From positions 255,137 to 319,136 of the forward strand of contig JAJNDK010000004.1 of NCBI GenBank assembly GCA_021156365.1: 64,000 nt of DNA, written 5' to 3'. Shown piece by piece: positions 37,413-53,990 of the stretch. How positions within the stretch are numbered: the first letter of the stretch is position 1; each line of letters starts with the position of its first letter. A program made the translations under genes and the position numbers. The notes beneath the pieces were generated by a model, which saw only the letters and a program-made list of their open reading frames with translations, made no database searches and had not been told where the DNA came from. Source of the stretch: Bacteroidota bacterium. Lineage in GTDB: Bacteria > Bacteroidota > Bacteroidia > B-17B0 > Aurantibacillaceae.

Positions 37413-37503
37413 TAAAAAAATAATTCGCGGAACGATCAAATAAATCTGTAATGTGTTGATTTTCATTTGAGATAATTTCAAAAGAAAATTCATCTCTTTC
37501 CTA

Positions 37504-37524
37504 TTGCGCAAATAGATTGCGCAG
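37504..37524. promoter_or_regulatory. palindromic operator TTGCGCAA-ataga-TTGCGCAG upstream of the WYL regulator gene
   Basis: 51-71 bp upstream of the WYL gene start; likely autoregulatory site. Confidence 0.65.
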
Positions 37525-37574
37525 ATAAATGAAATGTTTATCTTTGATACAACCTGTTTTTAAATAAAAACGTT

Positions 37575-38588: not shown

Positions 38589-38594
38589 TACGTG

Positions 38595-38670
38595 TCGGGA
38601 AAGCAGGATTTGAACCTGCGAACTCTCGCTTCCAGGGCGAGCGGGGACGGCCTGACTCCCCCATTTCCCG
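38595..38670 (-). tRNA. tRNA-Pro(UGG)-like, C at position 33
   Basis: acceptor CGGGAAA/TTTCCCG (C1:G72 as in bacterial tRNA-Pro), D-arm GGGG-AGTCAGGCCGT-CCCC (11-nt loop), anticodon arm CTCGC-CCTGGAA-GCGAG, T-arm GCAGG-TTCAAAT-CCTGC. Confidence 0.5.
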
Positions 38671-38681
38671 TTTTATCTTTG

Positions 38682-38755
38682 TCGATCAATGAGGACTCGA
38701 ACCTCAAACCTTCTGATTCGTAATCAGGTGCTCTATCCAATTGAGCTATTGATCG
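38682..38755 (-). tRNA. tRNA-Arg(ACG)
   Basis: acceptor CGATCAA/TTGATCG all Watson-Crick, D-arm GCTC..GAGC, anticodon loop TTACGAA, T-arm TGAGG-TTCGAGT-CCTCA. Confidence 0.7.
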
Positions 38756-38756
38756 G

Positions 38757-38832
38757 TGGTGGACAAGGGTGGGATCGAACCACCTTCTCCGGATTTTCAG
38801 TCCGGCGCATAGACCAACTCTGCTACTTGTCC
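38757..38832 (-). tRNA. tRNA-Phe(GAA), CCA encoded
   Basis: acceptor GGACAAG/CTTGTCC, anticodon arm CCGGA-CTGAAAA-TCCGG, T-arm GGTGG-TTCGATC-CCACC, ACCA 3' end; only 1 nt from the preceding gene. Confidence 0.6.
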
Positions 38833-38956
38833 ATTTCATCAACACTTTATGCAAGCCACCTTCCGGATTTTAAAGTGGCTGCTTTTGCCACTTTGAGGTC
38901 GCTATTCGCTCGGTTCAATCCGCTGCATTGACCATCTTTGCTACATTTCCATTTTG

Positions 38957-39029
38957 GGTGAGATAGGGGAATTGAACCCGTATCTGCGGCATCACAAGCC
39001 GATGTGTTGACCATTACACCAATCTCACC
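38957..39029 (-). tRNA. tRNA-His(GUG) with encoded G-1 and C73
   Basis: G-1 plus acceptor GTGAGAT/ATCTCAC, D-arm GTGT-AATGGTCA-ACAC, anticodon arm TCGGC-TTGTGAT-GCCGC, T-loop TTCAATT. Confidence 0.55.
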
Positions 39030-39067
39030 ATGTTTCAATTGTAGCAAAACGTTCGCTGCAATTGTAG

Positions 39068-39143
39068 TCGGGAAGGCTGGATTCGAACCAGCGAACTCCT
39101 GCGTCCAAGGCAGGCGGGGACGACCTGACTCCCCTACTTCCCG
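39068..39143 (-). tRNA. tRNA-Pro(UGG), paralog of 38595-38670
   Basis: acceptor CGGGAAG/CTTCCCG, D-arm GGGG-AGTCAGGTCGT-CCCC, anticodon arm CCTGC-CTTGGAC-GCAGG, T-arm GCTGG-TTCGAAT-CCAGC. Confidence 0.55.
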
Positions 39144-39172
39144 TAGTTTTTTTATCGGTCTACAAACCGAAG

Positions 39173-39267
39173 TGGGAAAGACAGTCACGCTATAGCGTGA
39201 GAACCTGCTAAGCCTTGCGGCGACGGAGTTACAGTCCGTCTCAACTCACCATCGTTGACGCTTTCCC
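39173..39267 (-). ncRNA. tRNA-Tyr(GUA)-like gene with T-arm replaced by a 6-bp/TATA-tetraloop palindromic hairpin
   Basis: acceptor GGGAAAG/CTTTCCC, class-II D-arm TCAA-CGATGGTGAG-TTGA, anticodon arm ACGGA-CTGTAAC-TCCGT, variable arm GCC-GCAA-GGC, then TCACGC-TATA-GCGTGA where the T-arm should be. Confidence 0.4.
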
Positions 39268-39274
39268 ATTTTTG

Positions 39275-39348
39275 TACCCTCTACAGGATTCGAACCTGCA
39301 CTCTCTTGTTTCTAAGACAAGCGCCTTTGCCTGTTTGGCTAAGAGGGC
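39275..39348 (-). tRNA. tRNA-Leu(UAG)-like lacking the long variable arm
   Basis: acceptor GCCCTCT/AGAGGGT, 3-bp D-stem with long D-loop GCC-AAACAGGCAAA-GGC, anticodon arm CTTGT-CTTAGAA-ACAAG, 5-nt variable AGAGT, T-arm GCAGG-TTCGAAT-CCTGT. Confidence 0.45.
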
Positions 39349-39356
39349 ATATTTTG

Positions 39357-39439
39357 CGGAAGGTATAGGAATCGAACCCTGCCCTTGTGGACCGCCCAAG
39401 ATTTCAAGTCTTGTTGTACACCATTGTACGCTACCTTCC
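39357..39439 (-). tRNA. tRNA-Ser(UGA)-like (class II length)
   Basis: acceptor GGAAGGT/ACCTTCC, D-stem GTAC/GTAC, anticodon arm CAAGA-CTTGAAA-TCTTG, long variable region, weak T-stem around TTCGATT. Confidence 0.45.
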
Positions 39440-39440
39440 G

Positions 39441-39535
39441 TTGCGGAGAATTGAGTTCCCGACACTCATCCCGACGATACTGTCAGGACACCATGCTTAG
39501 CAGGCAGGTCCGGGCCCCGCCCGGTTAATTCTCCA
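39441..39535 (-). ncRNA. structured RNA with tRNA-like closing stem (GGAGAAT/ATTCTCC) and no T-loop
   Basis: internal hairpins CCGGGC-GGGG-CCCGG and direct repeat TCGGGA..TCGGGA. Confidence 0.2.
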
Positions 39536-39542
39536 TATGTTG

Positions 39543-39615
39543 TACCCCCTGCAGGATTCGAACCTGCATGCTCTTGTGTCTGAGACAAGCGCCTTTACCG
39601 TTTGGCCAAGAGGGC
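39543..39615 (-). tRNA. tRNA-Leu(CAG)-like lacking the long variable arm (paralog of 39275-39348)
   Basis: acceptor GCCCTCT/AGGGGGT, D-arm GCC-AAACGGTAAA-GGC, anticodon arm CTTGT-CTCAGAC-ACAAG, T-arm GCAGG-TTCGAAT-CCTGC. Confidence 0.45.
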
Positions 39616-39616
39616 G

Positions 39617-39725
39617 TTGGTGGGAGGCAGGATCTTTAACTGTCAGGCGACAGAGTATCCTGCAGACAGACGGTTCTTCCACGCCCATCCGGATCTCCCA
39701 AGTGTTTCGGAAGATCTGCTCCCCG
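39617..39725 (-). ncRNA. ~105-nt structured RNA closed by a 12-bp stem (GGGGAGCAGATC/GATCCTGCCTCCC)
   Basis: internal hairpin CTGTC-AGGC-GACAG; no tRNA motifs. Confidence 0.2.
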
Positions 39726-39735
39726 TATTTTTTTG

Positions 39736-39807
39736 TTGTCAGGGATGGATTCGAACCACCGCTTTCAGAGCCAAATTCTGACGTCCTGCCAATTAGACGA
39801 CCTGACA
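39736..39807 (-). tRNA. tRNA-Gln(UUG)
   Basis: acceptor TGTCAGG/CCTGACA, D-arm GTCT-AATTGGCA-GGAC, anticodon arm TCAGA-ATTTGGC-TCTGA, T-arm GGTGG-TTCGAAT-CCATC. Confidence 0.6.
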
Positions 39808-39817
39808 GTATTTCTTT

Positions 39818-39852
39818 AAAACAAAAAGGCCCGATCTTTTTTAAGGATCGGG
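39818..39852 (-). terminator. rho-independent terminator downstream of the Rnl5-type ligase gene
   Basis: GGCCCGATC..GATCGGGCC 9-bp stem followed by TTTTTGTTTT on the minus strand. Confidence 0.6.
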
Positions 39853-39958
39853 CCTGCGCATATTTATGCACACCAATCCTGGTCAATCATCGTATAGTGA
39901 TTGAAAACTAAACCGAATACTATACGGTCGTTGTCCTGTTTTTATATTTCCGTCTTTT

Positions 39959-40960
39959 TTATTCATCGTATTTGATCAAAAAATCCGGATTGATCGCTTT
40001 GAAGGATACACGACCCTGCAAACTGTATTTGTCTGTCATTTCCTCAACAGGCCTGATAACAATACCTTCGGCGATAGTATCTGCGTGAAGCACCGATCTC
40101 ATTTTGGATTTAGCGATTAGTTTTTCGATATCGCTTTCCAGCATGTAACCTTCCTCCAATACAGGAACCATTTTCAGCTCTAGGTCGTTCAGCAGTTGCT
40201 TTGCTTCCTTCAGTGACAAATAGCTGTAGCTATCGATCGCAAACACGTTGAAGAAATGCACATGCTGACCTTTCAGTTTGTATTTATTCTTCTGAATGCC
40301 TTCACCTATGATCTCGCCCTGCAATGCAATGTTCGAACCCAGTTGTTTCAGCTTTTCTTCCAGCTTATTTTCTACTGCAAACTTCCACATGGAATTGCTT
40401 TCGTCAAACAGCAGATCCAGGTTCCTGGAGCAAACACCGAACTCACCATCTTTGAAGTAGAAAGTAGCTGAACTACCATCTAATTTTTCGGTTACGTAGC
40501 ATGCGATCCCTTCATATTTGTCCAATACCTTCTGCAATACCTGCACCCTGGTCTCATCTGTTTTAGGGATGAAAGAAGGGAACATACCTTTTACCTCGCC
40601 TGCTAAATTCGCAGGAATTGGCGGCTCGAACTTCGTTACGCCTAAGATGTCGGTTACGTCCAGGTCTTCTTCCACCTGTATTCCTTCCGGAAGTACATTT
40701 AATGGAAAGCAGATACCCTGTGAGATCTGGCCACGCAGCCTGATGGTTTTGATCCTGTTGCTTTTTGCACGAACAAATTCAAACTCCGGCTTATCAGGCA
40801 TCACGCTATCGATCTCGCAATACACACAGAGATCATCGATGGCAAAATCACCTTTACGGATCACTAACTGCCAACCCAACACGCTTGCTTTTTCAATGGC
40901 ATCGGCGCCTTCTATCGGCTCTATATTTTTTATCCTTTGTATGGATGCTAATTTTCTCAT
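39959..40960 (-). CDS. ATP-dependent RNA ligase, Rnl5/DraRnl (DRB0094) type: N-terminal OB fold plus nucleotidyltransferase
   Basis: N-terminal OB-like region (MRKLASIQRIKNIEPIEGADAIEKASVLGWQLVIRKGDF), motif I KxDG (TEKLDGSSATFYF); start taken at MRKLAS. Confidence 0.7.
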   Translation of the reverse strand: MRKLASIQRIKNIEPIEGADAIEKASVLGWQLVIRKGDFAIDDLCVYCEIDSVMPDKPEFEFVRAKSNRIKTIRLRGQISQGICFPLNVLPEGIQVEEDLDVTDILGVTKFEPPIPANLAGEVKGMFPSFIPKTDETRVQVLQKVLDKYEGIACYVTEKLDGSSATFYFKDGEFGVCSRNLDLLFDESNSMWKFAVENKLEEKLKQLGSNIALQGEIIGEGIQKNKYKLKGQHVHFFNVFAIDSYSYLSLKEAKQLLNDLELKMVPVLEEGYMLESDIEKLIAKSKMRSVLHADTIAEGIVIRPVEEMTDKYSLQGRVSFKAINPDFLIKYDE

Positions 40961-41097
40961 ATTTACCTCCCTTGTCCTGACATTATCGTCAGGGTTTACC
41001 CCGACACTTGTCGTCGTTAATTTTGTTTTAATTTTCTTTCGCACGGGCTGCACCACCTCTCCCTCTACAGTGCAGCCCCGATCAGCTTTCGATGATA

Positions 41098-41859
41098 CTA
41101 ATTGTTATTTAAGATCCTGTGGCTCAGGAAAGCTCTGTCCTTTGTGAAGATGGGAACTTCTTTACTTACCCATCTGCTCCGGATCGCACCTTCTCTTTCG
41201 TCCCGATAGCTATCGGGATCTTTTTCGATGATCCTCCCTCTTTTGTATTTCGGTGCATAGTCGTTCCAGTTAATACCTTTCTGAAAGATCAGCTCCTGTT
41301 GCTCGTCACTGCTTTTGCCACTCAACTCTTTGTGGCTATACAGAGACTGTGCTACGGAAGCGATACTGTTCCGGGTGGTATCCTGTTGTCTCCAGATGAA
41401 GTAGTTTTCTACTTCTGCTTTGGACGGGATCTGGAACACCCTGCTGTCGAACAATGCTACCTTCTCCGGTCGCAGTTGATTGAACCTTACAGTTGCAAGG
41501 CTTGCAGACACGCTGCAGATCTTCTGGATATTTCCTTCGAACCATGCACTGGTATTGATGTCGTCAAAGTCAGTCAAAAGGATAGAGATCTCATCGGACT
41601 GTACGAAGGCAAACTTTGCACCCTGGATATTCTGGCAGAGATAAGCGGCAGTTTCATCCATGTCGTTTATCAGCTTATCATCGAAGGGTTTTTCCAAACC
41701 CCTGGTATACGTGTGAAAGGCTTTACCATCTACCCGGATCAATGTGTATGTTCTCCGCGGAATGAAGTACCGTGTCCGGTCTTCATAAAACGCTTTCATC
41801 CTGTCACCTAATGTATCTTTCATTTCTTTTTTGTTAACTGTTAGTATTTTCTGAGCCAT
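41098..41859 (-). CDS. Thg1-like protein (tRNA 3'-5' nucleotidyl polymerase)
   Basis: Thg1 catalytic region LIRVDGKAFHTYTRGL...FVQSDEISILL; start uncertain (MAQKIL or MKDTLG); contains an in-frame copy of the palindrome TCCCGATAGCTATCGGGA encoding DPDSYRD. Confidence 0.75.
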   Translation of the reverse strand: MAQKILTVNKKEMKDTLGDRMKAFYEDRTRYFIPRRTYTLIRVDGKAFHTYTRGLEKPFDDKLINDMDETAAYLCQNIQGAKFAFVQSDEISILLTDFDDINTSAWFEGNIQKICSVSASLATVRFNQLRPEKVALFDSRVFQIPSKAEVENYFIWRQQDTTRNSIASVAQSLYSHKELSGKSSDEQQELIFQKGINWNDYAPKYKRGRIIEKDPDSYRDEREGAIRSRWVSKEVPIFTKDRAFLSHRILNNN

Positions 41860-41861
41860 AA

Positions 41862-41895
41862 AAAAACCCGGGCATTTTGCGTGCCCGGGTTTTTC
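41862..41895 (-). terminator. hairpin terminator (CCCGGGCA..TGCCCGGG plus T-run) immediately upstream of the Thg1-like start
   Basis: seen in sequence. Confidence 0.5.
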
Positions 41896-42521
41896 TTGTT
41901 CAAGTGTGTTCACTTAAACCGGGACGCGATGATGCGCAAATAGTCTACTCCCGTTGGCGGGCACTGTTCCGATCTTGTCTGCCTGCCGGCAGATGGATAT
42001 CGAAAGAATGGATCGTGTATATCGTTTTTCGTTCATTTTGTTGTAAAATAAAAAAGGTCCCGAAAATTTTCGGGACCTTTCTGTAATTATTCTGTATTTA
42101 ATAATTACTCCCCGAGCGTGTACAACATGCCTGAAAACCCTTTCGGATCTAGACTGTTATGGCGGTATGTAATTACTAAATTTTGCATTTCTATTGTTTT
42201 GATGATGCAAATATAAACACAAAAAATTACTGAATGCAAATTATTTTGAAAATATTTTTTCCAAATCAAAAAATAAAACAAAGTGCTACCTCCGGATCCA
42301 TTGATAATAAAGGGAAGCATCGTCTTGTTTAAAATGAGTATAAATTTCTGACACTACCGGATTAAATTTTAAGCAAATCCATTTCAGTGATTTGATTTTT
42401 AATGATCGAATCAAAGTGAAAATAATTTCCTTTTTTCATGAAGGTATCGGGTAAAAGGATTAAGAATAGCCTGTAATCAGAAGGCTCCACACACCTGAAT
42501 ATTTTTCAGTACCTTTGAAAT

Positions 42522-42776
42522 ATGGAATTAAAACGCCCCAACAAAAAACTGGAAACGCAAATAAAGCTTGTAGTGAAAGACATGTATTGTCCTGTTCATT
42601 CCAAACAGGCTGTGATAAAAATGGAAAATGAGGAAGAGCCTGTTTCGGTGGAAGCCTGTTGTCCTTTTTTCAAAAAGGATGTGGAGCTTGTTGGCGAGCG
42701 TCTCCGAAAAGATTTTCTTTATAAGGCTGAAAAAACAAGAGAACGATTGGAGCGGGAAAGAAAGCGTGATCTATAA
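42522..42776 (+). CDS. small Cys-containing hypothetical protein
   Basis: 84-aa ORF with CPVH...CCPF; convergent with the retron RT. Confidence 0.25.
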   Translation: MELKRPNKKLETQIKLVVKDMYCPVHSKQAVIKMENEEEPVSVEACCPFFKKDVELVGERLRKDFLYKAEKTRERLERERKRDL

Positions 42777-42784
42777 GACAGTGC

Positions 42785-44296
42785 TTACCAGATTTTCCAC
42801 CAGGGTTTTTTTGTATCTGAGGTGGTTTTCGTTGAAGCACCGATTCCCGCCTGCTTTTTCGGAGCCTCTTTTTCTTTCTGCGCTTTTGATTTGTGAACGA
42901 TTATATGTTTGAAGGCGTTCGCAACAAGGATCTTATTCACACGCTCCAGCATGGGTTTTCCTTTCACCGGATCTACCTGGTAAATAAAGCTTGCGTATCC
43001 TTTGATGGATGCGAGAAGAGTGGTAGAACCATTCCAGTGTTTTCCTGCGATCCCGTCTTTTTCTATCTGGAACAGCAAAGCCCGGAATTTTTTCACCTTA
43101 TCCGATGATACGGATAATTTCTGGTTGACCACAATTCCTGTCACTTCACGTCTTGCTCCTTTTCTCAACACTTTGAATTTGTCCGGGTGCAGCGTGAAAT
43201 TTTCCGCCTTGATGGTCTTTTTCACAAAGCCAATGAATTTCTTGAATTCTTCTTTCTTTTCTTCCGGCGCCGAAAAACTCAGATCATCCGCATAACGTGT
43301 ATATACGAAACCGTATTTTTTGGCAAGACCTGCAAAACGTGCATCCAGTCTCCGGCACAGCAGGTTTGTTATAGCAGGACTTGTAGGCGCACCCTGCGGT
43401 AAAGAGCGATCGCCGCTTTTTACGTAGTATGTTTTTTTATCGAGCTCGATCTCATCTACTTCGGATTCCGTGCAGATCAATGCAAAAATAGTCGCCACCT
43501 GTTCACTGTAACCGATCGCTTTGAAAAAACCTTTTACGCGCGGGTAGTGAATAGATGGAAAAAAATCTTTCAGATCGATATTGATCAGCAGGTTGTTCTG
43601 TAAATGTTCTTTCGCATTACTTACGATCGATCTTTTGGTTACAAAACCGTGAGCAGCAGCATGTACCGGTAGTTTATTTAATATTTCCTGCAGGATCCAG
43701 TGCTGGGCGCTTTTTAGCCTCGGTAACGGAGCGGAGATAGTACGGAAGCCTCCTGTTTTTTTCGGGAGTTGGAATTTTTTGTAATGTGTGATCTCGCTCA
43801 CGACCCTGTTGTAGGCAACGAAACGTAATTCGGAGATACTGATCTGCATGAGTGCAGCCAGTTTTTCTGCACTTTCAATAAGAGGCAGTCCGGATTTTTG
43901 GAGTTTTTCGGTATTAGCTTCGGCGTTGTTTAATCCTGTGGAAACAGCTTCGCCGAGATAGGTAATGTCTTTTTGTTTTTTCTCTTTCCAGGCGGCTGCT
44001 TTTTTCTCGGCTTTTTCTTTGCGCAGGAGTTTGTTCTCCGCCTGTTTTTTTCGTGAGGCTTCCATGCGCGCGGCACGCATGTCTTTCAGTGCAAGGTCCC
44101 TGTTCTGGTAATTGCGCTGTTTCTGCAAAAGCTCATTCAGATCCTTGCGTAAGGAAGCTTCCCGCAGAATGAGTTGTTCCGGCACGGACGCAGCTGCCCC
44201 GTCTTCTTTCCAGAAGCCCAGCTTTTTCATCTCTTCCAGGATCACAGCATCCTTGGTCGAGTTTTTTATCCGGTCGTATATTTCTTGTCTGGTCAC
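42785..44296 (-). CDS. retron-type reverse transcriptase with 170-aa coiled-coil N-terminal extension (GTG start)
   Basis: RT motifs KKTGGFRTISAP, NAKEH (NAxxH), PQGAPTSP, YADD, thumb REVTGIVVN (VTG); Lys/Glu-rich N-terminal coiled coil. Confidence 0.75.
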   Translation of the reverse strand: MTRQEIYDRIKNSTKDAVILEEMKKLGFWKEDGAAASVPEQLILREASLRKDLNELLQKQRNYQNRDLALKDMRAARMEASRKKQAENKLLRKEKAEKKAAAWKEKKQKDITYLGEAVSTGLNNAEANTEKLQKSGLPLIESAEKLAALMQISISELRFVAYNRVVSEITHYKKFQLPKKTGGFRTISAPLPRLKSAQHWILQEILNKLPVHAAAHGFVTKRSIVSNAKEHLQNNLLINIDLKDFFPSIHYPRVKGFFKAIGYSEQVATIFALICTESEVDEIELDKKTYYVKSGDRSLPQGAPTSPAITNLLCRRLDARFAGLAKKYGFVYTRYADDLSFSAPEEKKEEFKKFIGFVKKTIKAENFTLHPDKFKVLRKGARREVTGIVVNQKLSVSSDKVKKFRALLFQIEKDGIAGKHWNGSTTLLASIKGYASFIYQVDPVKGKPMLERVNKILVANAFKHIIVHKSKAQKEKEAPKKQAGIGASTKTTSDTKKPWWKIW

Positions 44297-44304
44297 GTTT
44301 TTTT

Positions 44305-44535
44305 AAAAAATTGGAAGGGCAGGGCTTTCTTCGTTCACTTTGAGGACTGGGTTGGTCAACTCAAGCGGTACGCATCCAGTACGCTATTTCACTTCCGGGA
44401 AGTCTCACCGGAAATGGCGTACTGGATGCAGTACCGCACAGTAAAGAACAGACCAGTGATGCATTACTAATCTGTTGGCATGAACAGCGATCCACTGTTC
44501 GGGTTGCAAGATGTTTGCCTGCGCCTTCCAAAATG
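44305..44535 (-). ncRNA. candidate retron msr/msd non-coding RNA
   Basis: inverted repeats a1 TTGGAAGGCGCAGGCAAAC (44512-44530) and a2 GAAAGCCCTGCCCTTCCAATT (44308-44328) flank a long hairpin GCGGTACTGCATCCAGTACGC...GCGTACTGGATGCGTACCGC (44364-44436); immediately 5' of the RT on the same strand. Confidence 0.5.
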
Positions 44536-44554
44536 TTTTTGTTTTGTAAGTATA

Positions 44555-46228
44555 CTAAATAATTAAATCTAAAATTCCTTTTTTTATTGTTTGTTTTTCC
44601 CGGTACGTAATGTTCAATGCCACGATATGCTCGCAGGGGCCTTTGAACAATTTATTCTGCATATAATAATTGCATTCGCATCGTGCAGACACCACTGTTT
44701 CATCCCTGCTCAATACGATCTCCGGCTTGTATGTTTTTCCTTTGTCGGTAACACTGCCTGCCACTCTCAGCCCGCCTTTATCAGCTTCGGTAATGGCGTT
44801 GAGCTTCACAGCATCCGTATCGCTGAAGATCCGCGCAGCTTCTTCCCGCGCATTGGCAAAACGTAATTTTTTTCCATCGATCGGATCGCGGCTCAGTTCG
44901 CGGATACGATACACTCTTTTATTGATATCATAGATCGCACGTCCCGATTGGGCAAAAGCAAGCAGTGAGCTCATGACAGTTGTTTTATCCAGCTGTACTT
45001 TGGAAGCAAGAGCATCTGTTTTACTGAACCAGGTTTCCCGAAGTGCGGTGTAAATTTTTTGCATCGCCATTACGTCCGTTTCCCGGCGCGGAGCCAGCAG
45101 GTCGAAATTTCCTTGTCCTGACCAGTCATTGGCAGTCCAGCCCGAAAGACCAAGCGTGAAGCTCATATCGCCCATGTCGGCAATAAAGAACGAAGGAAGC
45201 CCCGTTCCCATTAACACGACATTAAATTTTTTGGTAACGGGGATCAGGCGTTCCAGTAACAACAATCTTCTTCTGCCCCAGATGCGGATCTCTGTTTCTG
45301 CTGAACCTTTGTACAAGGAGCGTGGGCAGTCCAGCACAAAACCCCAGGGTTCGAACAGGATCTTCACTGGTTCACCCGGTTTCAATATAAAACGTAAAGA
45401 GCGTGGACCTTCTTTTTCTTTTTTCCGTTTCAGGTGGAAACAAATATTGTACACATCCATCGGATGCAATTCTATTTCCGCTCCACCCAATGTCATGGCA
45501 GAATTCACCTGCAGAAAGCCCCGTACCCAACTATCAGGCACGTCGATCTTGGTTTCTTTAAAACTTTCCTGCTCGCCGGTTGTTACTTCAAAGCCTGAAG
45601 GATCGATGACGAATTTGGTTTCTTTGTAATCCCGGATCTTCTGGAATTCATCGTACAGCGCCGAAGAATAATCGATGTTGGTCGTGCCGCATTTGAAGTC
45701 GTTGATCTTTGTGAATACCTCGTAGCTGCAGCTCAGTCTTCCATACGAAGATTCGTCTTTGCTGAAACATTCGAAAAACAACTCATCCGGATGCACGGTG
45801 ATCACGGGATCGAGTACGATCCACATATCACGGTCGGAAGTATAGATGTAATTGAAATATTTTGATTTGGCCGTATTGAAGGGACCAAGTATTTTATTTT
45901 TTTGATCGTAAATATCCGAAAGCTCTTTCCGTAGCAGTCCTGCTTTTTGTGTGAGCTCTTCGGAGGTTTTCATGAATTCTGCCAGCCATATCGACTCCTG
46001 TTCTGCTGCCCAGGCTTTGTAATCACTTTTATCTTTGGGCTTGAAACGGAAATCGGAAACCACAATATCATGCAGGGCAGAGATCGCTTCGCGGAAGGGC
46101 AAATGTTTGTTCAGTATCCCGTTGAAGAAAGTAGGATCACGCATTACATCAGGCGAAAACGACATCTCCGTGGAAGAGCCGCTATTCGTCACTTTTGTAT
46201 CTCCGTTGAATTTATAATTGAACTGCAT
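44555..46228 (-). CDS. SWIM zinc-finger domain protein
   Basis: C-terminal SWIM CxCxnCxH (CECNYYMQNKLFKGPCEH); 557 aa; stop is 20 nt from the retron a1 repeat. Confidence 0.7.
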   Translation of the reverse strand: MQFNYKFNGDTKVTNSGSSTEMSFSPDVMRDPTFFNGILNKHLPFREAISALHDIVVSDFRFKPKDKSDYKAWAAEQESIWLAEFMKTSEELTQKAGLLRKELSDIYDQKNKILGPFNTAKSKYFNYIYTSDRDMWIVLDPVITVHPDELFFECFSKDESSYGRLSCSYEVFTKINDFKCGTTNIDYSSALYDEFQKIRDYKETKFVIDPSGFEVTTGEQESFKETKIDVPDSWVRGFLQVNSAMTLGGAEIELHPMDVYNICFHLKRKKEKEGPRSLRFILKPGEPVKILFEPWGFVLDCPRSLYKGSAETEIRIWGRRRLLLLERLIPVTKKFNVVLMGTGLPSFFIADMGDMSFTLGLSGWTANDWSGQGNFDLLAPRRETDVMAMQKIYTALRETWFSKTDALASKVQLDKTTVMSSLLAFAQSGRAIYDINKRVYRIRELSRDPIDGKKLRFANAREEAARIFSDTDAVKLNAITEADKGGLRVAGSVTDKGKTYKPEIVLSRDETVVSARCECNYYMQNKLFKGPCEHIVALNITYREKQTIKKGILDLII

Positions 46229-49200
46229 GTGCTTTTTCTTTTTGATAGACCGGCGTATCTTTAATATGAAGTACGGCGTCTACCGAAGGATATTTTTTAC
46301 GGATGTCTGTAAGCGCTTTTATATACAATGCTTTGTCAGTGATGGCAGCCGAGGCCGACATGCGATTGAATATACTTACGATCAGCAAGGCATTCTTTTC
46401 GTTTTCCAGGGCTTCGGTATGCAGAAGGTTAATGGCCCGCACTTTTGCCGTATGTCCTTTATTTATCTGAGATAACAAGGTTACAAAGAAGCCGCCCAGT
46501 TTTTCCAGCATTTCATAATTGCTTTTTGCATAGTTGTCGAGGAACCCGGAAGCAAAGAGCTGCATACGGCTATCCGGGTGCTGGCTCAACTTCATCAGGT
46601 ATTCGAATCCGTTATCTTTTTCGAACCATTTGCTGATCATTTCTCTCCCGAAAGCTTGTACATCTTCCTTGATACTGTCGCAAAGCGAAACAAACATATT
46701 TACATCCCATTCGTTGGCCGTAAAATTATTCCGGAACAGGTCGAAAGCAAATCTCCGTGTATCTTCCCAGGTAGCGTCTGCCAGCAGTATGGCATTTTTC
46801 CGGTCATTTTTGATCAGGGCAATATTTCCTGTGTAATGAGCGCGGATGAGCTCTCTTAGTTTCAACAGTGGCGAATCAGCGAGGGTATTCAGTTCGCTAA
46901 CAGACAATCCACTTAAAGGAACATATTTTTGGAGCAGAAGCAAACCTAATTCCTGTGCGGCTGAATAACGGGATGCGCAAAGTGAGAGTGTTTTCTTTTT
47001 TTCGATGTACTGTAAAAAGGCTTCCAGCTTCTGAGTGAGCAGGTTGAAAATGTCCTTGTGTAATTCCTCGTGTTTCTCTTTTACCGTGAGCACCGGCAGG
47101 AAGAGGTGAACCAGTTCCGCTCCGGAAGAAGGCTCGGCTTGTAACAAGCGTTCGATCAGCTTTTGAGCGGATTGACGCAGATCAGCAAGCGGGGATAAAC
47201 ACAAGCTCAGGATCAGGTTTTTCTTTTCCAGTAATTGTGCGCTTCCTAAATTATTCAACAGATCGACAGCTGCGGCCCTTGCTATTATACTTTCGGACTG
47301 GAGCAGGGTAAATATTATTTTCTCCGGAACCTGTTCGGCCGGAAGTTTTTTAAGAGCAAGCAGTTTTCCGCCCAGTCCCTGGATCAATATATTCGGGTGC
47401 AGGAGCAGATCAAAAACCATTTCATTGCTAAGCAGTCCTATTGCCGGATTGTAAAAATCCGTAATAAAGGAGCTGATAGCCTGTATGTATGCCTCATCGA
47501 GCTTGTAATCCTTTACACAAATAACATCCAGTATTTTCTGAATGACCTCTGCACCGGTGGATGCTTTTGGTAAATGACTTTTAAGGAAGTTCTCCAACCA
47601 ATCGTGCAGTTCTTTGTCCATCGACAGGATCAGCATGGTCTGGAACACTGCATCATCGGCAAAGGCAGCCGGATTGGAACGAATGAATTGTTGTCCTAAC
47701 TCACGTGCTTCTTTTATTGTGCTCATAAAAAGAGCTACGATGATCTCCGCGTCAGGTATTGTATTCGCAAATTTTTCTTTCACTACATCAAGCCCCAATT
47801 GCTGCACTTTCACGGATTTGTTACGTAAGAGGTCAGCAAGGTGATGGGTTTGAATATAATCTGAAAAGGAAGCATTATTTCTAAATACGGTCAATGCAAA
47901 ATCGGTGACACGCTCGCAATTGCTTTTGGTAAGCAGGCGGACAATGTCTTCCGGCGCTTTATTCCAGAGGCGGGCAAATGCTTCTTCACGGCTCGGCTCA
48001 AACACTTTACCAGGTTCGTATGGAGCCACACATTCCCAAACCTGTTTTGCCTTGTTGAAGCGATAGCGTGTGCTATTGGCATACAGGATATAGTACATGG
48101 AAATATACGAGGAATGCGTATCGAACCAGTTGTTGATCACTTCCGTGGAATAAGTACGTGTGGCGCTGTTGTAGTTGTAATTGATCTTCGATTCTTTCGC
48201 CGGTTTTTCTCCGTCGCCTTCATCATCATAACGAAGCAAAATAGAGGTAGCGAATTTTGTATAGGAAAGTGATTCATCTTCTCCGAGCTTACGCAAGGTC
48301 CGCAAAGTCCTTCTGCCGAAATATTGTTTTGTTTTTTTGGAAAATGCCTTGGTACTGTTTTCTTTTTGCAGCTCATTCCGTATCGGCCCCCAGTTTTTGT
48401 CAATGTATTCGTAGGAGTCGGCGCTGCTGAATGTGCCCTGTGCTTTCTCGATCTTTTTTACGAATACTGCGTAGGTGTCCGCATCGTCCAGCATTTCTGC
48501 GATTTTATACAATTGCCGGATAGCCCTGAAATAACCGGCTTTTACCGGGATCACATCCAGTGCTTTGGTGAAAGCCGTTTTTAGCTGCTCGTTGGAACGG
48601 GATAATAAATAGAGCGGAACGGCAAATTCATTTACACCGGTTCCGAAACGGCTGAAAACGTCCTTGAGGTATACTTCCGGAATTCCATTTTCCAGTGTGA
48701 ATACCATATTGATGCTTTCCGGGAGCTTTCCACGCAGCTCTTTTAAAAAGGCTTCCTGTTCCTTTCCTTCCAGGATGTTGGAAAGCGCAGCCAAAGCCAG
48801 ATTTCGGATATAAGAAGGAAAATTACCCGCCGCTATTTCCTGTAAAAAAGTCGTGGATTTCTGGTCGCCGATCCTGCCGATCGTGCGAATACAGGAATAG
48901 AGCAGGAGCAGGTCTGTTTTGTCAATGAGCTTTAGAACAAGTGGCGCAGCTTCTTTTAAATTCAGCTCTCCTGCTCTCCAAACAATTCTTGACAAAGGCC
49001 AGGTTTCGTTCTCCTCTTCGTTAATGGCTGCTTTCAGGTCTTTGATAACAGCTTTATCTCTTTTATTGCCGGTAGTTTTAGGTGCGGCAATTTCCGCTTG
49101 AAATGCTGGGTTTTCTCCTGTGGCCGCATAGCCTTTTTTTCTTTTCTCGTCTTCCAGTACGGCAAAGATCTTTTCGGCTTCGGTTTTACTTACGGGGAAA

Positions 49201-49256
49201 ACGGTTTTACTTCCTTCCTTCAGTGCCGCACCTCTCCGGCCATAGCGGAAATTCAC
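46212..49256 (-). CDS. large alpha-helical HEAT/ARM-repeat-like protein (DUF4132/MolR-like?)
   Basis: 1014 aa, all-helical repeat composition (ALAALSNI, AAAVDLLNNLG); 17-nt overlap with the SWIM gene. Confidence 0.5.
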   Translation of the reverse strand: MNFRYGRRGAALKEGSKTVFPVSKTEAEKIFAVLEDEKRKKGYAATGENPAFQAEIAAPKTTGNKRDKAVIKDLKAAINEEENETWPLSRIVWRAGELNLKEAAPLVLKLIDKTDLLLLYSCIRTIGRIGDQKSTTFLQEIAAGNFPSYIRNLALAALSNILEGKEQEAFLKELRGKLPESINMVFTLENGIPEVYLKDVFSRFGTGVNEFAVPLYLLSRSNEQLKTAFTKALDVIPVKAGYFRAIRQLYKIAEMLDDADTYAVFVKKIEKAQGTFSSADSYEYIDKNWGPIRNELQKENSTKAFSKKTKQYFGRRTLRTLRKLGEDESLSYTKFATSILLRYDDEGDGEKPAKESKINYNYNSATRTYSTEVINNWFDTHSSYISMYYILYANSTRYRFNKAKQVWECVAPYEPGKVFEPSREEAFARLWNKAPEDIVRLLTKSNCERVTDFALTVFRNNASFSDYIQTHHLADLLRNKSVKVQQLGLDVVKEKFANTIPDAEIIVALFMSTIKEARELGQQFIRSNPAAFADDAVFQTMLILSMDKELHDWLENFLKSHLPKASTGAEVIQKILDVICVKDYKLDEAYIQAISSFITDFYNPAIGLLSNEMVFDLLLHPNILIQGLGGKLLALKKLPAEQVPEKIIFTLLQSESIIARAAAVDLLNNLGSAQLLEKKNLILSLCLSPLADLRQSAQKLIERLLQAEPSSGAELVHLFLPVLTVKEKHEELHKDIFNLLTQKLEAFLQYIEKKKTLSLCASRYSAAQELGLLLLQKYVPLSGLSVSELNTLADSPLLKLRELIRAHYTGNIALIKNDRKNAILLADATWEDTRRFAFDLFRNNFTANEWDVNMFVSLCDSIKEDVQAFGREMISKWFEKDNGFEYLMKLSQHPDSRMQLFASGFLDNYAKSNYEMLEKLGGFFVTLLSQINKGHTAKVRAINLLHTEALENEKNALLIVSIFNRMSASAAITDKALYIKALTDIRKKYPSVDAVLHIKDTPVYQKEKAHAVQL

Positions 49257-49444
49257 TACAAAAGCATCATCACCCGATTCGAGCAGGTCGATCTCATATA
49301 CTTTATCGGAATTTCCTTCCTGGAAAAAAAGCTGTATGGATTTGATGAGTTTCAGAGTAGCTACAAATAGGTTTGTACGAAAATACTAATAAAACTATAT
49401 GCGATACTGCTTGTTAATAAAATGTAGAATAATGAGAAAGATCT

Positions 49445-50092
49445 TTAGGCGTGATCTACGATATCAACGTCGTCGCTGAAATAAACAGGATGTTCATTGT
49501 CGCGCCTGATCAGTAATACCCGTTCGCAGGGAAGATCCATGCGTACCTCTTTTCTGTGTACCCATTCGGCTTTGCCCACTACAGCAATCACTTCGCCCTC
49601 TTCCAATATCCCTTCTTTATAATCAAGCGTTTTATTAAGACCAAGCCAGTCTTCACTTTTTTCCCCGTGTTTTTGCAGGTATTTCTCCAGCCGGGGAGTA
49701 GCGTTGTTTAAGAAACCTGAATTGTATGATTTGTCCGGGTGGATATATGTTTTGACAATATCCGTAGTAATTATGGCAAAGTGTTTCCCGTTTTGAATGA
49801 TCACATCACCCGCCTTTTCTTCATTTATCCATTCATGCCGGTTTTTTCCCTGGCCATGTGTTATGATGACATGATAATAAGCACATTTTCTTCCGGAAAG
49901 CGGTGCAATAAGCGTTTTGCCTCTGAAGACAACGCTTCCTTTGATTTTTACAACTTCTCCTTCCTGTACTTCCCCGATATTCTTCCCTTCTGTTTTCCGG
50001 ATCTTTCTTTTTATAATACTTTTTCTATCGGTATAAATAGTATAGAGAATGGCAAGAGTGAAAATGATCGCAACTGGAAGAATAAAATCCAT
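49445..50092 (-). CDS. membrane-anchored hypothetical protein
   Basis: N-terminal transmembrane helix, 215 aa. Confidence 0.4.
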   Translation of the reverse strand: MDFILPVAIIFTLAILYTIYTDRKSIIKRKIRKTEGKNIGEVQEGEVVKIKGSVVFRGKTLIAPLSGRKCAYYHVIITHGQGKNRHEWINEEKAGDVIIQNGKHFAIITTDIVKTYIHPDKSYNSGFLNNATPRLEKYLQKHGEKSEDWLGLNKTLDYKEGILEEGEVIAVVGKAEWVHRKEVRMDLPCERVLLIRRDNEHPVYFSDDVDIVDHA

Positions 50093-50208
50093 GTAGTATT
50101 AATTAATGGATAAATATAATTAATTCATGGCAAATAAAAGAATTCCTCTTTGCCGGATGCACCCGGAAACATCCAGCTTCACAGGCTTTTATTCTCAGAA
50201 ATATGGGT

Positions 50209-51000
50209 TCAATTTTTAATCTCGAATGTAGCTTCGATCTCATACCGCAGTTTGATGGAACGGAAATCACTTTCACTATTAGCTCCTCCTCCGCTGGCAA
50301 CGTAACTGGAACTATTGCTCAGCATATTCGACTGGTTGGAATACCATGAAGAATAATACCTGTTGTTTTCTCCAAGCTCGCGGATGGCGATCACCTCTCC
50401 TGTTTTTTTTCCGATCCCGTCCAGCAGATAACCGGCTTTTTCTTTTGCTGCTTTCAGCGCATCTGTTTTAACAGTCTTGCGGTATTCCAGGATCTTTTTG
50501 CTGGATAATTCACCAACGTTCATATACTCCACACCTTTAACGGCAAGCTCTGCCACGATCTTATCAATAAGGGAAAAATCCTGGACCTTAAATTTAAGCT
50601 GCTTGCTCATCTGGATATTCCGGCCTTCGTATCTCCAGTAACCGCCTACACATTCGGTAGTGATATCTTCTTTGGCAACTCCCAGCGCGGTCAGTTTTGA
50701 ACGGACTTCCTGTTCTATTTTATCCAGCTTTATCTTTGTTTTGTACTCCAGGTAGCTTTTGCTTGTAAATTCTTCTGCATAGTACTCGCGCATGCCGATG
50801 ACAAATTCTATATCGTCGGGTTTGATGCACATTTCGCTGCTACCGGTTACTTCTATGCTTCTTTCGGAAAACGGTACTTCGGGATGTTGTGTACGCGAAG
50901 TGTATGCAGAGAATACAACCAGCGTAAGAACAATAAAGCCAGTTCCTATCACAATTTTATTTTTGAGTAAAGACTCCAATTCATTAAAAAGATTTTTCAT
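50209..51000 (-). CDS. SIMPL/DUF541-like periplasmic protein
   Basis: signal/transmembrane segment; size and composition fit the SIMPL family. Confidence 0.4.
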   Translation of the reverse strand: MKNLFNELESLLKNKIVIGTGFIVLTLVVFSAYTSRTQHPEVPFSERSIEVTGSSEMCIKPDDIEFVIGMREYYAEEFTSKSYLEYKTKIKLDKIEQEVRSKLTALGVAKEDITTECVGGYWRYEGRNIQMSKQLKFKVQDFSLIDKIVAELAVKGVEYMNVGELSSKKILEYRKTVKTDALKAAKEKAGYLLDGIGKKTGEVIAIRELGENNRYYSSWYSNQSNMLSNSSSYVASGGGANSESDFRSIKLRYEIEATFEIKN

Positions 51001-51020
51001 GCCATTTTATTTTACACCGT

Positions 51021-51611
51021 TTATTTGCCTTTACGTACAGAAGTTCCTTCGAACTCTATCCTCGGATCGAATACACTGATCAGCTCCGACAGCTCATATA
51101 CGTTTTTATAACCATAACCATACAGGTTGATATAAGTAGGGATATTGAGGGCGAGAGTTAATTCTTTTTGCCCGGCTTTAGGCTTTGCAGGAATATACGC
51201 CTTGCTGGCAAAATTGAGATCATCGTTATCGAAGTTATTATTGCAATAGATCAGGATGCGGTAATCGGAGGAAGGAATGATCTTTGCCAGGTTACTTTGT
51301 GTAAAATCAGAAAAATTTAAATGGATCGCTCCTTTTACGTGTTTGCTTTTGTACATCGCATCGGAGCGTGTATCCAGGATGATCGTTTTGGCTTCTCCGC
51401 TCATTTTGAAAAACTCTTCAAGACCGACCAGTCTTGTTTTACGATGGGCCTTTACTTCCGACACCAGTTTTTCGTAGGCATCAAAATCCACTTTTGCAAT
51501 AAGAGAAACACGAGCTGCTGCAGATTTGGTTTGAGCTTTTGCAATGGAGAAGGAAAAGAGGCCGATCAGCAGGAATGCGGCGATTGTGAACTTGTTTCCG
51601 GAGGTTTTCAT
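51021..51611 (-). CDS. rhodanese-like domain protein
   Basis: signal peptide; rhodanese-homology segment (IILDTRSDAMYKSKHVKGAIHLNF...YCNNN). Confidence 0.5.
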   Translation of the reverse strand: MKTSGNKFTIAAFLLIGLFSFSIAKAQTKSAAARVSLIAKVDFDAYEKLVSEVKAHRKTRLVGLEEFFKMSGEAKTIILDTRSDAMYKSKHVKGAIHLNFSDFTQSNLAKIIPSSDYRILIYCNNNFDNDDLNFASKAYIPAKPKAGQKELTLALNIPTYINLYGYGYKNVYELSELISVFDPRIEFEGTSVRKGK

Positions 51612-51755
51612 GATTTCTTTTTTTAAATGATTTTATGTAAAACTACGCCCTGAAAACCGGCTATTTAAGTGCTACTTAGTGAAACGGATGCCTGACTTGG
51701 TGAAACGGCAGCAAGGGATGGTAAAAAAGCCAAAAAGCCTGTAAACACTGATGTT

Positions 51756-53990
51756 TTGGCGAAAATAAAGTTTTTTAATTGCAAATTCCTTGCTAAGTTT
51801 ACATCGGAAATGAGAAAACCCGGATCCATACAGAACCTGCTACATACTTCTGCCTGCCTGCTTGTGTGGATGGGTCCGCCTGTTTTTTTGCAGGGCCAGG
51901 TGAGCCAGCAGAACTCTGTTCCCCCTATACAAAAGGAATATCAGCAAAATTCCACCAAACAGCAAAACTCAGTCTACCAGCCAAAAACAGTGCAAAACGG
52001 CAAAGGAGGTTTTTTTCAAACGACCTCTTTATTGGACGCGTATCTCGATTCGGCCCGTTATCTTTCCAACCGCTCACCAATGAAGGCCGTGGATTTTATC
52101 AATAAAGCCATCGAAGAAAGCATCAATACCAATAACAGGGAAAAGGAAGCGCAGGCATTCCTTATTCTTGGAGATATTCAACAGCACCTGGGACAACATG
52201 ACCTTGCAGTCGAAAACTACAAAAAAAGTATAGGTGCGCTCGACATTCAAAAAAAGAAAAAGATCAATTACAGTTCCGTAGCAAATCAGGTGACCCTGTT
52301 CAATGCGTATAAACAGATGGCCGTTTCGCTTACCGAACTTTCCGGGTATGATAAGGCATTGGAGACGATCAATTTCAGCCTGAGCAAATACGCATATGCT
52401 GTACCTGTAAAAGATCAGATGGAGGCGCAGCGCATTCTGGCGGATGTGTACCTGAAACAGGGAAAAACTCAATCCGCGCGAGAAGTGTTGACCGGGGTAC
52501 TTGAAAAAGAACAGGCTTCCAAAAATACAACAGGGGAGATCCAGACGCTTTTGGCTATCGGGAAAACCTGGCAGAAAGACGGGAACGAGAACACGGCTCT
52601 TGAGTATTATACAAAGGCTAAAGACCTGTCGGAAAAAACAAAGCAGTCTGCGCTGACCATACAGGCGAACGGATCAATGGCAAGTGTGTATCGTGCACAA
52701 AAAAATGTGGACAAAGAAGTACAGGCGCGAAACGATAACATTGCCCTGAACAACAGTACCAATAATCAGATCGCCAATACCAAGGAGAATGTTGAAATAG
52801 GAAATGCTTACCTGAATGTGAACCAGGTGAATCAGGCAGCGAACTATTATAACATCAGCACCCAGCAACAGTCAGTAAATACAGCAAATATGACAAGCAC
52901 GGGTGCAATCCAGGTGTTTTCTTTTCAGCCACAAAAAAAGGAACTGTTCAGTGTAAGTAATGACTTAGGAGAAAGTGCGGATGCATATAAAACACTGGGA
53001 GAGAAATACGCAAAACAAAATCAATTTGAAGAGGCGGCTCTTTATTTCGGGAAGTATGCACAGCTGCAGGACTCCATAAAAAAGATCAGGGACAAAGAGC
53101 TGGACGATGCCATCGCGATCAGTACCAATATAGGGAAGAACCAGCAGCGCATCGACCTCCTGGAAAAAGAAAGGGAGCTGAACGGAAAATCCATCGACAT
53201 CCTGAAGCAGGATAAAGTGCTGAAAGATGAACAGCTTGGTTTGAAGAACGGGATCATCATATCATTATCCGTGATCATGGCACTAATGCTCCTCGCCGTG
53301 TTTTTTATTATCCGGAGCTCGCGCGAGAAGAAAAAGATCCATCAGTTGCTGGCCCTGAAATCACTGAGAGGACAGATGAACCCGCATTTTATATTTAACG
53401 CACTCAACTCAGTGAATCATTATGTATCGCAGAATGATGAGCGCCAGGCAAACCGCTATCTGTCCGACTTTTCGCGGCTTATGCGTTTGGTGATGGACAG
53501 CTCCAAATATGATTTTATTGCCCTGAACGAAGAGCTGGAGATGCTACGCCTGTATCTGCAGCTGGAGCATGCACGATTCAAAGATAAATTTGAATACGAG
53601 ATCCGGGTGAGCGAACAGGTGGAAGATGCGGAATGGGAATTGCCACCGATGCTGGTCCAGCCGTATCTCGAAAATGCTGTCTGGCATGGCCTGCGCTATA
53701 TCGATGGCAAGGGCACACTGAAGCTGGAGCTGGAACAGGTCGGAGCTGAATTGCAGGTAACGATTACGGATAGCGGGATCGGAAGGAACCGTTCGCTTGA
53801 ATTAAAAACACAAAATCAAAAGAAACAAACCTCACTGGGAATGCAAAACATAAGTAACCGTGTGCAGATCATGAATGAGATCTTCCATACCAATATCCGC
53901 GTAGAGATCGGGGAGGCTTTTCCCGGGCAGGCGGATTGCGGCACACGTGTGAAACTAACGATCCCTAAAAAACCGAATACAAATGCTTAA
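51756..53990 (+). CDS. TPR-repeat sensor histidine kinase, LytS/YehU type (paralog of 3792-5702)
   Basis: TPR-like repeats, coiled coil, transmembrane helix, MNPHFIFNALNSVNHYV, HATPase_c; 8-nt overlap with the response regulator. Confidence 0.8.
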   Translation: MAKIKFFNCKFLAKFTSEMRKPGSIQNLLHTSACLLVWMGPPVFLQGQVSQQNSVPPIQKEYQQNSTKQQNSVYQPKTVQNGKGGFFQTTSLLDAYLDSARYLSNRSPMKAVDFINKAIEESINTNNREKEAQAFLILGDIQQHLGQHDLAVENYKKSIGALDIQKKKKINYSSVANQVTLFNAYKQMAVSLTELSGYDKALETINFSLSKYAYAVPVKDQMEAQRILADVYLKQGKTQSAREVLTGVLEKEQASKNTTGEIQTLLAIGKTWQKDGNENTALEYYTKAKDLSEKTKQSALTIQANGSMASVYRAQKNVDKEVQARNDNIALNNSTNNQIANTKENVEIGNAYLNVNQVNQAANYYNISTQQQSVNTANMTSTGAIQVFSFQPQKKELFSVSNDLGESADAYKTLGEKYAKQNQFEEAALYFGKYAQLQDSIKKIRDKELDDAIAISTNIGKNQQRIDLLEKERELNGKSIDILKQDKVLKDEQLGLKNGIIISLSVIMALMLLAVFFIIRSSREKKKIHQLLALKSLRGQMNPHFIFNALNSVNHYVSQNDERQANRYLSDFSRLMRLVMDSSKYDFIALNEELEMLRLYLQLEHARFKDKFEYEIRVSEQVEDAEWELPPMLVQPYLENAVWHGLRYIDGKGTLKLELEQVGAELQVTITDSGIGRNRSLELKTQNQKKQTSLGMQNISNRVQIMNEIFHTNIRVEIGEAFPGQADCGTRVKLTIPKKPNTNA

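Follow-up and report, generated by a model that had tools for sequence, protein, structure and literature searches.

The DNA described here, referred to below as the window, is a stretch of 64,000 nucleotides (nt) from contig JAJNDK010000004.1 of an uncultured, Cytophagia-like Bacteroidota bacterium (assembly GCA_021156365.1). Its minus strand carries a four-part cassette that consists, read 5' to 3' on that strand, of a gene for a protein with a WGR domain and a HEAT/ARM solenoid, a gene for a SWIM zinc-finger protein, a noncoding RNA (ncRNA) of the msr-msd type, and a gene for a reverse transcriptase (RT). The cassette is very probably an intact, chromosomal retron of type XIII as this type was delimited by Mestre et al. 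(2020, PMC7736814), and we have little doubt that the locus is a type XIII retron whose multicopy single-stranded DNA (msDNA) is made from the ncRNA mapped here. The coordinates of the features are presented in Table 1. The parts of the cassette overlap or are closely spaced. The open reading frames (ORFs) for the WGR/HEAT and SWIM proteins share 17 nt (46212–46228), as had been stated in the original prediction for this locus, which was made from the DNA letters alone. The stop of the SWIM gene at 44555 was found to be followed 23 nt further on by the beginning of a1, the first arm of the a1/a2 inverted repeat, and not after the 20 nt given originally. A spacer of 258 nt, which houses the proposed a1/a2 repeats, separates the stop of the SWIM gene from the start of the RT gene. 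The coordinates first reported for the RT and SWIM genes agree with the ORF list, whereas the HEAT ORF of 1014 amino acids (aa; 46212–49256) was given a start that most likely leaves it 99 nt too short.

The PADLOC models for type XIII match all three proteins over almost their full lengths, with E-values of 7.8e-184 for RT_XIII (610 bits), 5.1e-230 for SWIM_XIII (762 bits), and 2.3e-280 for WGR_XIII (931 bits). Mestre et al. (PMC7736814) described type XIII as the combination of an RT of clade 10 with a SWIM protein, usually preceded by a WGR-like and HEAT/ARM protein (their cluster 216_1), and a distinct ncRNA structure. The validated members listed in that report are Retron-Mxa1 (Mx162), Retron-Mxa2 (Mx65), Retron-Sau1 (Sa163), and Retron-Nex2 (Ne144); the retrons that were discovered first in myxobacteria belong to this family. 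In a survey published in 2026, type XIII was the third most abundant of the retron groups considered and had the widest phylum range. The SWIM protein of this type was reported to possess a central acidic DEDE motif (Dx7[D]x4Ex30-32Dx37E), a winged helix, and a C-terminal CxCx12CxH sequence (PMC7736814). The SWIM protein from the window contains the exact CxCx12CxH motif, CECNYYMQNKLFKGPCEH, at residues 517–534, although the Pfam SWIM model remains below its threshold (15 bits versus 19.6). Its acidic residues are arranged as D140 x7 D148 x4 E153 x32 D186 x38 E225, with the last spacing being x38 rather than the published x37, and all five are invariant in 30 homologues. The RT_XIII profile with its N-terminal extension, the winged helix, the placement of the WGR-HEAT/ARM gene upstream of the SWIM gene and of the ncRNA directly upstream of the RT gene, the chromosomal location, and the wide phylogenetic distribution are also shared with the published class. 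The present cassette differs in that the host is an uncultured member of the Bacteroidota and not a myxobacterium, and in that the first gene starts with CTG. The SWIM/HEAT pair was originally thought to fall outside the known retron effector classes; the pair in fact defines a class that is already known and is not a new effector class. The locus is a further instance of a class that PADLOC and DefenseFinder already recognize, and by itself matters little. The interest lies in the little-studied biology of type XIII and in the fold prediction presented below.

The RT contains the sequences NAKEH (residues 227–231, 43604–43618), YADD (residues 335–338, 43283–43294), and VTG (residues 385–387, 43136–43144), and these correspond to all three of the motifs named in the original prediction. 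Pfam RVT_1 is matched. In the alignment with RT_XIII, residues 2–490 of the RT fall on positions 13–457 of the 469-position profile. The nearest solved structures are those of retron RTs, namely Ec86 (1.8e-43, residues 127–456) and Ec67 (1.5e-35), and the NCBIfam model for the St85 retron is missed by a very small margin (234.5 versus a cutoff of 235). The charged extension at the N-terminus, approximately residues 1–135, had been considered an unusual addition of about 170 residues. It is typical of the clade, since the RT_XIII profile covers the protein from residue 2 and the related RTs all align from residue 1–3. The extension was found in every RT relative recovered, that of Desulfonema ishimotonii (504 aa) among them. 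The retron Ec86/Eco1 (type II-A) has a homologous RT core and, as here, an a1/a2-closed msr-msd directly upstream of the RT gene. The Ec86 RT, which has 320 aa in its PDB entry, is without the extension of about 130 residues, and the locus in the window differs further from Ec86 in having two large, apparently non-enzymatic partners.

It is extremely improbable that this enzyme is the RT of a group II intron, of a diversity-generating retroelement (DGR), or of one of the defense-related UG, DRT, or Abi families. There is some likeness to such enzymes below threshold, with 53.5 bits for the NCBIfam model group_II_RT_mat (TIGR04416; cutoff of 300) and 45.9 bits for Drt2 (cutoff of 390). However, the RT_XIII score is double that of the runner-up model (301 bits), retron RT-type models make up 24 of the 25 best PADLOC matches with no DRT model among them, and in the comparison with the PDB the group II intron RTs (~1e-4) are surpassed by the retron RTs by 20–40 orders of magnitude. 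A covarying msr-msd RNA accompanies the RT, and Rfam detects no group II intron RNA at the locus. A search for direct repeats across 12 kb (40000–52000) returned a single 33-nt pair of 73% identity, which is at chance level, and no template repeat/variable repeat (TR/VR) pair of the kind used by a DGR. The group II intron, DGR, and DRT identities were rejected on the basis of the PDB relatives, the NCBIfam scores below cutoff, and the missing TR/VR repeats. By profile and structure scores, the RT goes with the retron RTs and not with those of group II introns or DGRs. The initial identification of the locus as a retron stands on the RT motifs, the retron RT matches in PADLOC and the PDB, and the covarying msr-msd.

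The RNA of the 258-nt spacer was predicted to fold with an energy of -101.8 kcal/mol (z = -9.45), a value that was not equaled by any of 200 dinucleotide shuffles. Relatives of the ncRNA were sought with an nhmmer profile, the region upstream of the RT was aligned from eight homologous loci, and the structure was obtained with RNAalifold. The consensus contains seven helices, which form an a1/a2 closing stem, one msr hairpin, a long composite msd hairpin, and an apical helix. Compensatory double changes were found at 38 of the 60 base pairs. On the consensus, 93.5% of the cells are paired, and this falls to 37–48% once the partners are slid by 1–3 columns; in a shuffle control (500 shuffles), the observed values were not attained on any of five measures. 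Several of the pairs are G-U in most sequences and are compatible with the minus strand alone. The msr/msd candidate that had been placed 5' of the RT is thus borne out by the fold and by the covariation. The inverted repeats given originally for its ends (44512–44530 and 44308–44328) exist, but they are shorter and less perfect than was claimed. The a1 and a2 arms form eight perfect pairs, a 1-nt bulge, and then five to six further pairs, and 11 of the 13 pairs in this helix covary. The arms of the long hairpin are 19 nt each (44372–44390 and 44411–44429) and are 95% complementary, with covariation at 13 of the 17 pairs of the upper msd helix.

Two short elements next to the closing stem are unchanged in the eight aligned loci. 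Within CTTGCA, on the 3' side of a1, the invariant G44507 is positioned 9 nt past a1 in all eight loci and is a candidate for the branching guanosine. By analogy with known retrons, the invariant CGAAG on the 5' side of a2 is likely to mark where on the template reverse transcription begins. Because the a1/a2 stem pairs their flanks, CTTGCA and CGAAG would be juxtaposed, and from general retron biology such proximity is required for priming. When folded as DNA, the predicted msDNA strand (44326–44458, plus strand) gives a hairpin with z = -7.6. By the established behavior of retrons, the cassette would be transcribed as one unit, and the RT would bind the msr and prime the synthesis of cDNA on the msd template from the 2'-OH of the conserved guanosine, with synthesis starting near the CGAAG beside a2. 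The product would be a branched msDNA of approximately 110–135 nt, with a long hairpin as its folded form.

The upper stem of the msd (13–17 bp; 44372–44429 in the window) is the most variable part of the msd hairpin, in contrast to a conserved basal helix and a conserved apical loop region, CATTTCCGGTG...GAAGTGAAATA. It looks like a variable cassette between constant parts. The window contains a single msr-msd unit, and two to three tandem units lie between the SWIM and RT genes of loci from two metagenome-assembled genomes (MAGs) of Saprospiraceae and from Desulfonema ishimotonii (L002, ~1615–2700; L007, ~6890–7460; L013, 9393–9629 and 9692–9901). Inspected by eye, the counterpart of CTTGCA in these units is mostly CCTTGCA, with GCTTGAA in two of them. 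The two units of L013 are near-identical outside the 14-bp upper msd stem; this stem is wholly different between them, yet self-complementary in each. In loci of this kind, one RT may produce several msDNAs.

The first gene of the cassette begins at an unusual codon. There is no ATG, GTG, or TTG from the upstream stop to the GTG at 49256, and hence the mechanically defined ORF begins at 49256. The frame is, however, open and conserved for 33 codons upstream of this GTG, and the start codon of the homologues (ATG, or GTG in one of them) aligns exactly with the CTG at 49355–49353. A start at GTG 49256 would lose half of the WGR domain. With the extended protein, Pfam WGR (PF05406) is found (27 bits; cutoff, 22), and it is missed without the extension; Pfam HEAT_2 is also matched. 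The two closest relatives of the locus (L011 and L012), which are about 65–77% identical in the WGR/HEAT protein, share the CTG, the N-terminus, and an upstream box, TAnTATTTTCGTA, about 25 nt ahead. The corresponding box in the window, TAGTATTTTCG, resembles the Bacteroidota -7 box TAnnTTTG and, from this likeness, would act as a promoter. Since the CTG, the N-terminus, and the box are conserved in both relatives, CTG 49355 is most likely a genuine start codon conserved in the lineage and neither a product of decay nor a sequencing error.

The absence of the usual start codons ahead of GTG 49256, together with a CTG at the position of Met1 in the family, could alternatively mean that the cassette is a decaying remnant in which the loss of an ATG has inactivated or truncated the WGR/HEAT protein. 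We consider this very unlikely. Genetic code table 11 permits CTG as a rare start in bacteria, the same CTG is kept in two relatives of such limited identity, the 33 codons that follow it are conserved at the protein level, the upstream box is conserved, and the remaining parts of the cassette are all intact. The CTG is found at 49353–49355 (minus strand) in the window, at ~2879–2881 in L011, and at ~2868–2870 in L012. Gene callers have mis-sized the protein in each case, with 1014 aa on the contig of the window, 1029 aa in L011 (truncated), and 1065 aa in L012 (over-extended). For cloning, the consequence is that a construct made from the annotated 1014-aa ORF would lack part of the WGR domain. 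The window corresponds to the JGI metagenome contig Ga0456371_00001056, and an identical WGR/HEAT protein is also present on a 1.43-Mb contig.

The model of the WGR/HEAT protein matches HEAT/ARM scaffolds only, with no catalytic fold, and a sequence search of the PDB returned designed alphaRep proteins only. The suggestion of a DUF4132-like protein in the original prediction was not upheld, as Pfam DUF4132 did not match. An N-terminal WGR domain is shared with the WGR-domain proteins of Pfam PF05406, a family that includes the WGR of PARP, and the homologues were named "predicted DNA-binding WGR domain protein" by annotators at the Joint Genome Institute (JGI). In contrast to the PARP-type WGR proteins, the protein described here has no PARP catalytic or other enzymatic domain, and the rest of it is a HEAT/ARM solenoid of about 950 aa.

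The structure of the SWIM protein was modeled with AlphaFold2 from a 30-sequence alignment, which gave a pLDDT of 68.7 and a pTM of 0.70. The confidence of the model is good from approximately residue 230, moderate for residues 140–230, and poor for residues 1–140. The regions of the protein are an N-terminal coiled coil, a predicted PCNA-like two-domain clamp fold (~140–375), a winged helix (~385–445), and the SWIM finger (517–534). A Foldseek search with this model matched PCNA with an E-value of 6.6e-9, a probability of 1.0, and target-normalized TM scores of 0.6–0.67. The core of the protein is predicted to adopt a PCNA-like clamp fold followed by a winged helix. The model matches the fold of a single monomer of PCNA, of the 9-1-1 clamp, and of the beta sliding clamps, with an identity of just 7–13%; no homology to sliding clamps is detectable in the sequence. 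Unlike these clamps, the SWIM protein joins its core to a coiled coil, a winged helix, and a SWIM finger, and the likeness is one of fold, seen in a predicted model, and not family membership. A sequence search of the PDB with the SWIM protein gave no match, and NCBIfam has no model for either the SWIM or the WGR/HEAT protein. In the literature searched, no paper ties these accessory proteins to a clamp fold.

Mestre et al. (PMC7736814) suggested that the SWIM protein is a DEDE-type nuclease derived from a transposase, and such a protein could be a toxic effector that is restrained by the RT-msDNA complex. The acidic residues in the window have almost the published spacing and are invariant in the homologues, and the region that contains them is modeled at moderate confidence only (pLDDT of ~36–82), all of which leaves room for this proposal. 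By the secondary-structure pattern of the model, the DEDE residues would fall within the clamp-like region, in its first and less confident half. The matches listed for the SWIM model include no fold of a nuclease or transposase, and this weakens the idea of a transposase-derived nuclease. Pfam, NCBIfam, and the PDB sequence search likewise gave no nuclease or transposase match, and we regard the idea as unlikely. The predicted PCNA-like core, together with the lack of a recognizable catalytic fold in either partner, leads to the hypothesis that the SWIM protein binds or encircles the msDNA hairpin, as opposed to acting as a nuclease toxin.

Several observations weigh against the interpretation of the locus as an intact type XIII retron with a function like that of other retrons. 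The placement of the RT in type XIII is by profile score. The ncRNA structure derived from the aligned sequences is common to all of the type XIII-like loci examined, and Rfam gave no retron or msr family for it at the gathering threshold or at E ≤ 1; the Rfam matches within 42–50 kb are limited to terminator-driven or chance ones. The first gene is without a canonical start codon. Neither the SWIM nor the WGR/HEAT protein contains a toxic, catalytic, enzymatic, or membrane-toxin domain that could be recognized in the Pfam and fold searches. For type XIII, the literature searched records no phage defense, toxicity, or other phenotype. Finally, a chromosomal and slowly evolving cassette with no recognizable defense island fits a housekeeping role as well as defense.

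The literature searched for the function of type XIII, for phage defense, and for a link to PCNA consists of the 2020 classification, the 2026 survey, and passing mentions (in one apparent match, WGR stood for whole-genome resequencing), and none of it demonstrates the roles of the SWIM and WGR/HEAT partners, even though Mestre et al. (PMC7736814) place Mx162 and Mx65 in the class. From the predicted folds, the accessory proteins look like binders of nucleic acids or proteins and not like recognizable enzymes, and most likely they join the complex of RT and msDNA. Given the operon structure, the co-evolution reported by Mestre et al., and the nucleic-acid-binding folds, it is plausible that the partners are co-transcribed and that they assemble with RT-msDNA. 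The output could be a growth arrest that is triggered when a phage interferes with the msDNA and this interference is sensed, as in the characterized retrons; this is a real possibility but speculative. Ec86, for example, is described in the Ec78 paper (PMC13376987) as being triggered by a phage methyltransferase that methylates its msDNA.

It is also possible, though somewhat doubtful, that the type XIII retron has been domesticated for a cellular task related to DNA or RNA, such as a clamp-like complex loaded with msDNA that operates in replication, repair, or regulation. Type XIII was the only one of the types analyzed by Mestre et al. (PMC7736814) that correlates with the 16S of the host, from which vertical inheritance and possible domestication were suggested. 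When genomes were scanned with the RT, ten related loci were recovered from Bacteroidota, and tblastn gave mostly the same order of WGR/HEAT, SWIM, and RT genes. Synteny of the cassette was seen in genomes and MAGs of Bacteroidota and in Desulfonema ishimotonii (Desulfobacterota), and the conservation of the SWIM/HEAT genes beside this RT clade agrees with what had been anticipated in the original prediction. At least 5985 matches were obtained for the SWIM family, with an unusually high identity of 57–81% among the more than 100 homologues listed, including one from Desulfobacterota; for the WGR/HEAT protein, the identity is 30–65% across the aligned homologues. No homologue was found in a phage collection of 50,697 records, and the plasmid matches are confined to non-mobilizable replicons of at least 0.75 Mb. 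This conservation, the absence from phages, and the restriction to large replicons agree with the vertical inheritance noted in 2020. PADLOC identifies no known defense genes adjoining the cassette, the chromosomal neighbors are shared with the close relatives L011 and L012, and a toxin-like domain is absent from both accessory proteins. On the other hand, the flanking genes differ in the more distant relatives, and therefore the cassette does move. Some relatives carry genes inserted within the cassette, as fast-changing loci do. Moreover, in the literature found (PMC13376987), the functionally characterized retrons all act in phage defense.

As a more tentative suggestion, and one that we would not favor, type XIII may have no toxin-type effector at all. 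The clamp-fold SWIM protein and the WGR-HEAT scaffold would then be loaded onto the long hairpin of the msDNA or would read it, forming a complex for surveillance or DNA metabolism without a guarded toxin, and two to three tandem ncRNAs that differ in their stem sequences could provide one RT with several msDNA ligands in some lineages. If this were true, the oldest known retron family would be an msDNA-clamp complex for surveillance or DNA metabolism.

Table 1. Positions of the retron cassette, its RNA elements, and the neighboring genes in the window.
Feature	Position	Strand	Remarks
WGR-HEAT/ARM accessory gene	46212–49355	-	1047 aa counted from CTG 49355–49353, most likely start
SWIM zinc-finger accessory gene	44555–46228	-	557 aa
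Retron ncRNA (msr-msd), a1 through a2	44311–44531	-	fold z and covariation
Retron reverse transcriptase gene	42785–44296	-	503 aa; GTG start 14 nt past a2
a1 arm TTGGAAGGCGCAGGC	44517–44531	-	inverted repeat, fold, covariation
a2 arm GCCCTGCCCTTCCAA	44311–44325	-	inverted repeat, fold, covariation
Invariant CTTGCA	44505–44510	-	immediately 3' of a1; unchanged in 8 of 8 aligned loci
msr hairpin GAACAGTGGATCGCTGTTC	44482–44500	-	8 pairs, 100% paired, 4 with compensatory changes
Long composite msd hairpin	44346–44457	-	basal helix 44440–44457 with 44346–44361; upper helix 44412–44429 with 44372–44389; apical 44391–44403
Invariant CGAAG	44329–44333	-	immediately 5' of a2; unchanged in 8 loci
Candidate promoter element TAGTATTTTCG	49378–49388	-	like Bacteroidota -7 box; ~25 nt upstream of CTG; TAnTATTTTCGTA in L011 and L012
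Thg1-like gene	41098–41913	-	island
RNA ligase gene with PHA02142 OB-fold	39959–41056	-	island
Array of 9 tRNA genes	38594–39807	-	island
WYL/WCX regulator gene	37575–38588	+	island
Ro60/TROVE protein gene	35804–37321	-	island
Second tRNA array	33284–34847	-	island

The three proteins of the cassette have evolved at very unequal rates. At the same loci, the identity to the window is approximately 58–60% for the SWIM protein, 46–56% for the RT, and 30–34% for the WGR/HEAT protein. Extra genes were observed within the cassettes of several relatives. These include a second WGR protein of 481 aa (L008, 4602–6047), a 268-aa ORF that by eye is like the Rpn/YhgA-type proteins (L004, 4041–4847), and uncharacterized ORFs of 147–248 aa (L006, 6975–7592; L003 and L005, 5271–6017; L013, 8687–9130).

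Downstream of the retron, the window contains an island that resembles an RNA-repair locus (33284–41913 on the minus strand, plus 37575–38588 on the plus strand). In L012, the ligase, tRNA, WYL, and TROVE genes are kept and the Thg1-like gene is lacking. The neighboring Thg1-like, RNA ligase, WYL, Ro60, SIMPL, and orf215 genes were rejected as parts of the retron, as they are conserved in the two closest relatives only and are absent near distant type XIII retrons. Two atypical, low-scoring Rfam tRNA matches on the minus strand (34233–34318, 86 nt, 37 bits; 34463–34605, 143 nt, 42 bits) have no counterpart among the ARAGORN calls. Both are located near the Ro60/TROVE gene and may represent either Y RNAs that resemble tRNAs or tRNAs with an intron.

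A unit resembling a small RNA (sRNA) is located downstream of the RT gene at ~42050–42215 (minus strand), with a -7-box-like sequence, TATATTTGCATCA, and, after it, about 140 nt with a strong terminator (42082–42051) as their end. It gave no above-threshold family in Rfam and is conserved in L012 (~9750–9926), with compensatory changes in the stem of the terminator. The overlapping 71-aa ORF was rejected as a retron gene because L012 preserves the nucleotides and the terminator but not the reading frame. A Cys-rich ORF of 84 aa on the plus strand (42522–42776), for which no family match was obtained, converges on the stop of the RT gene. Its homologue in L011 (2387–2644, 73% nucleotide identity) is found upstream of the WGR/HEAT gene.

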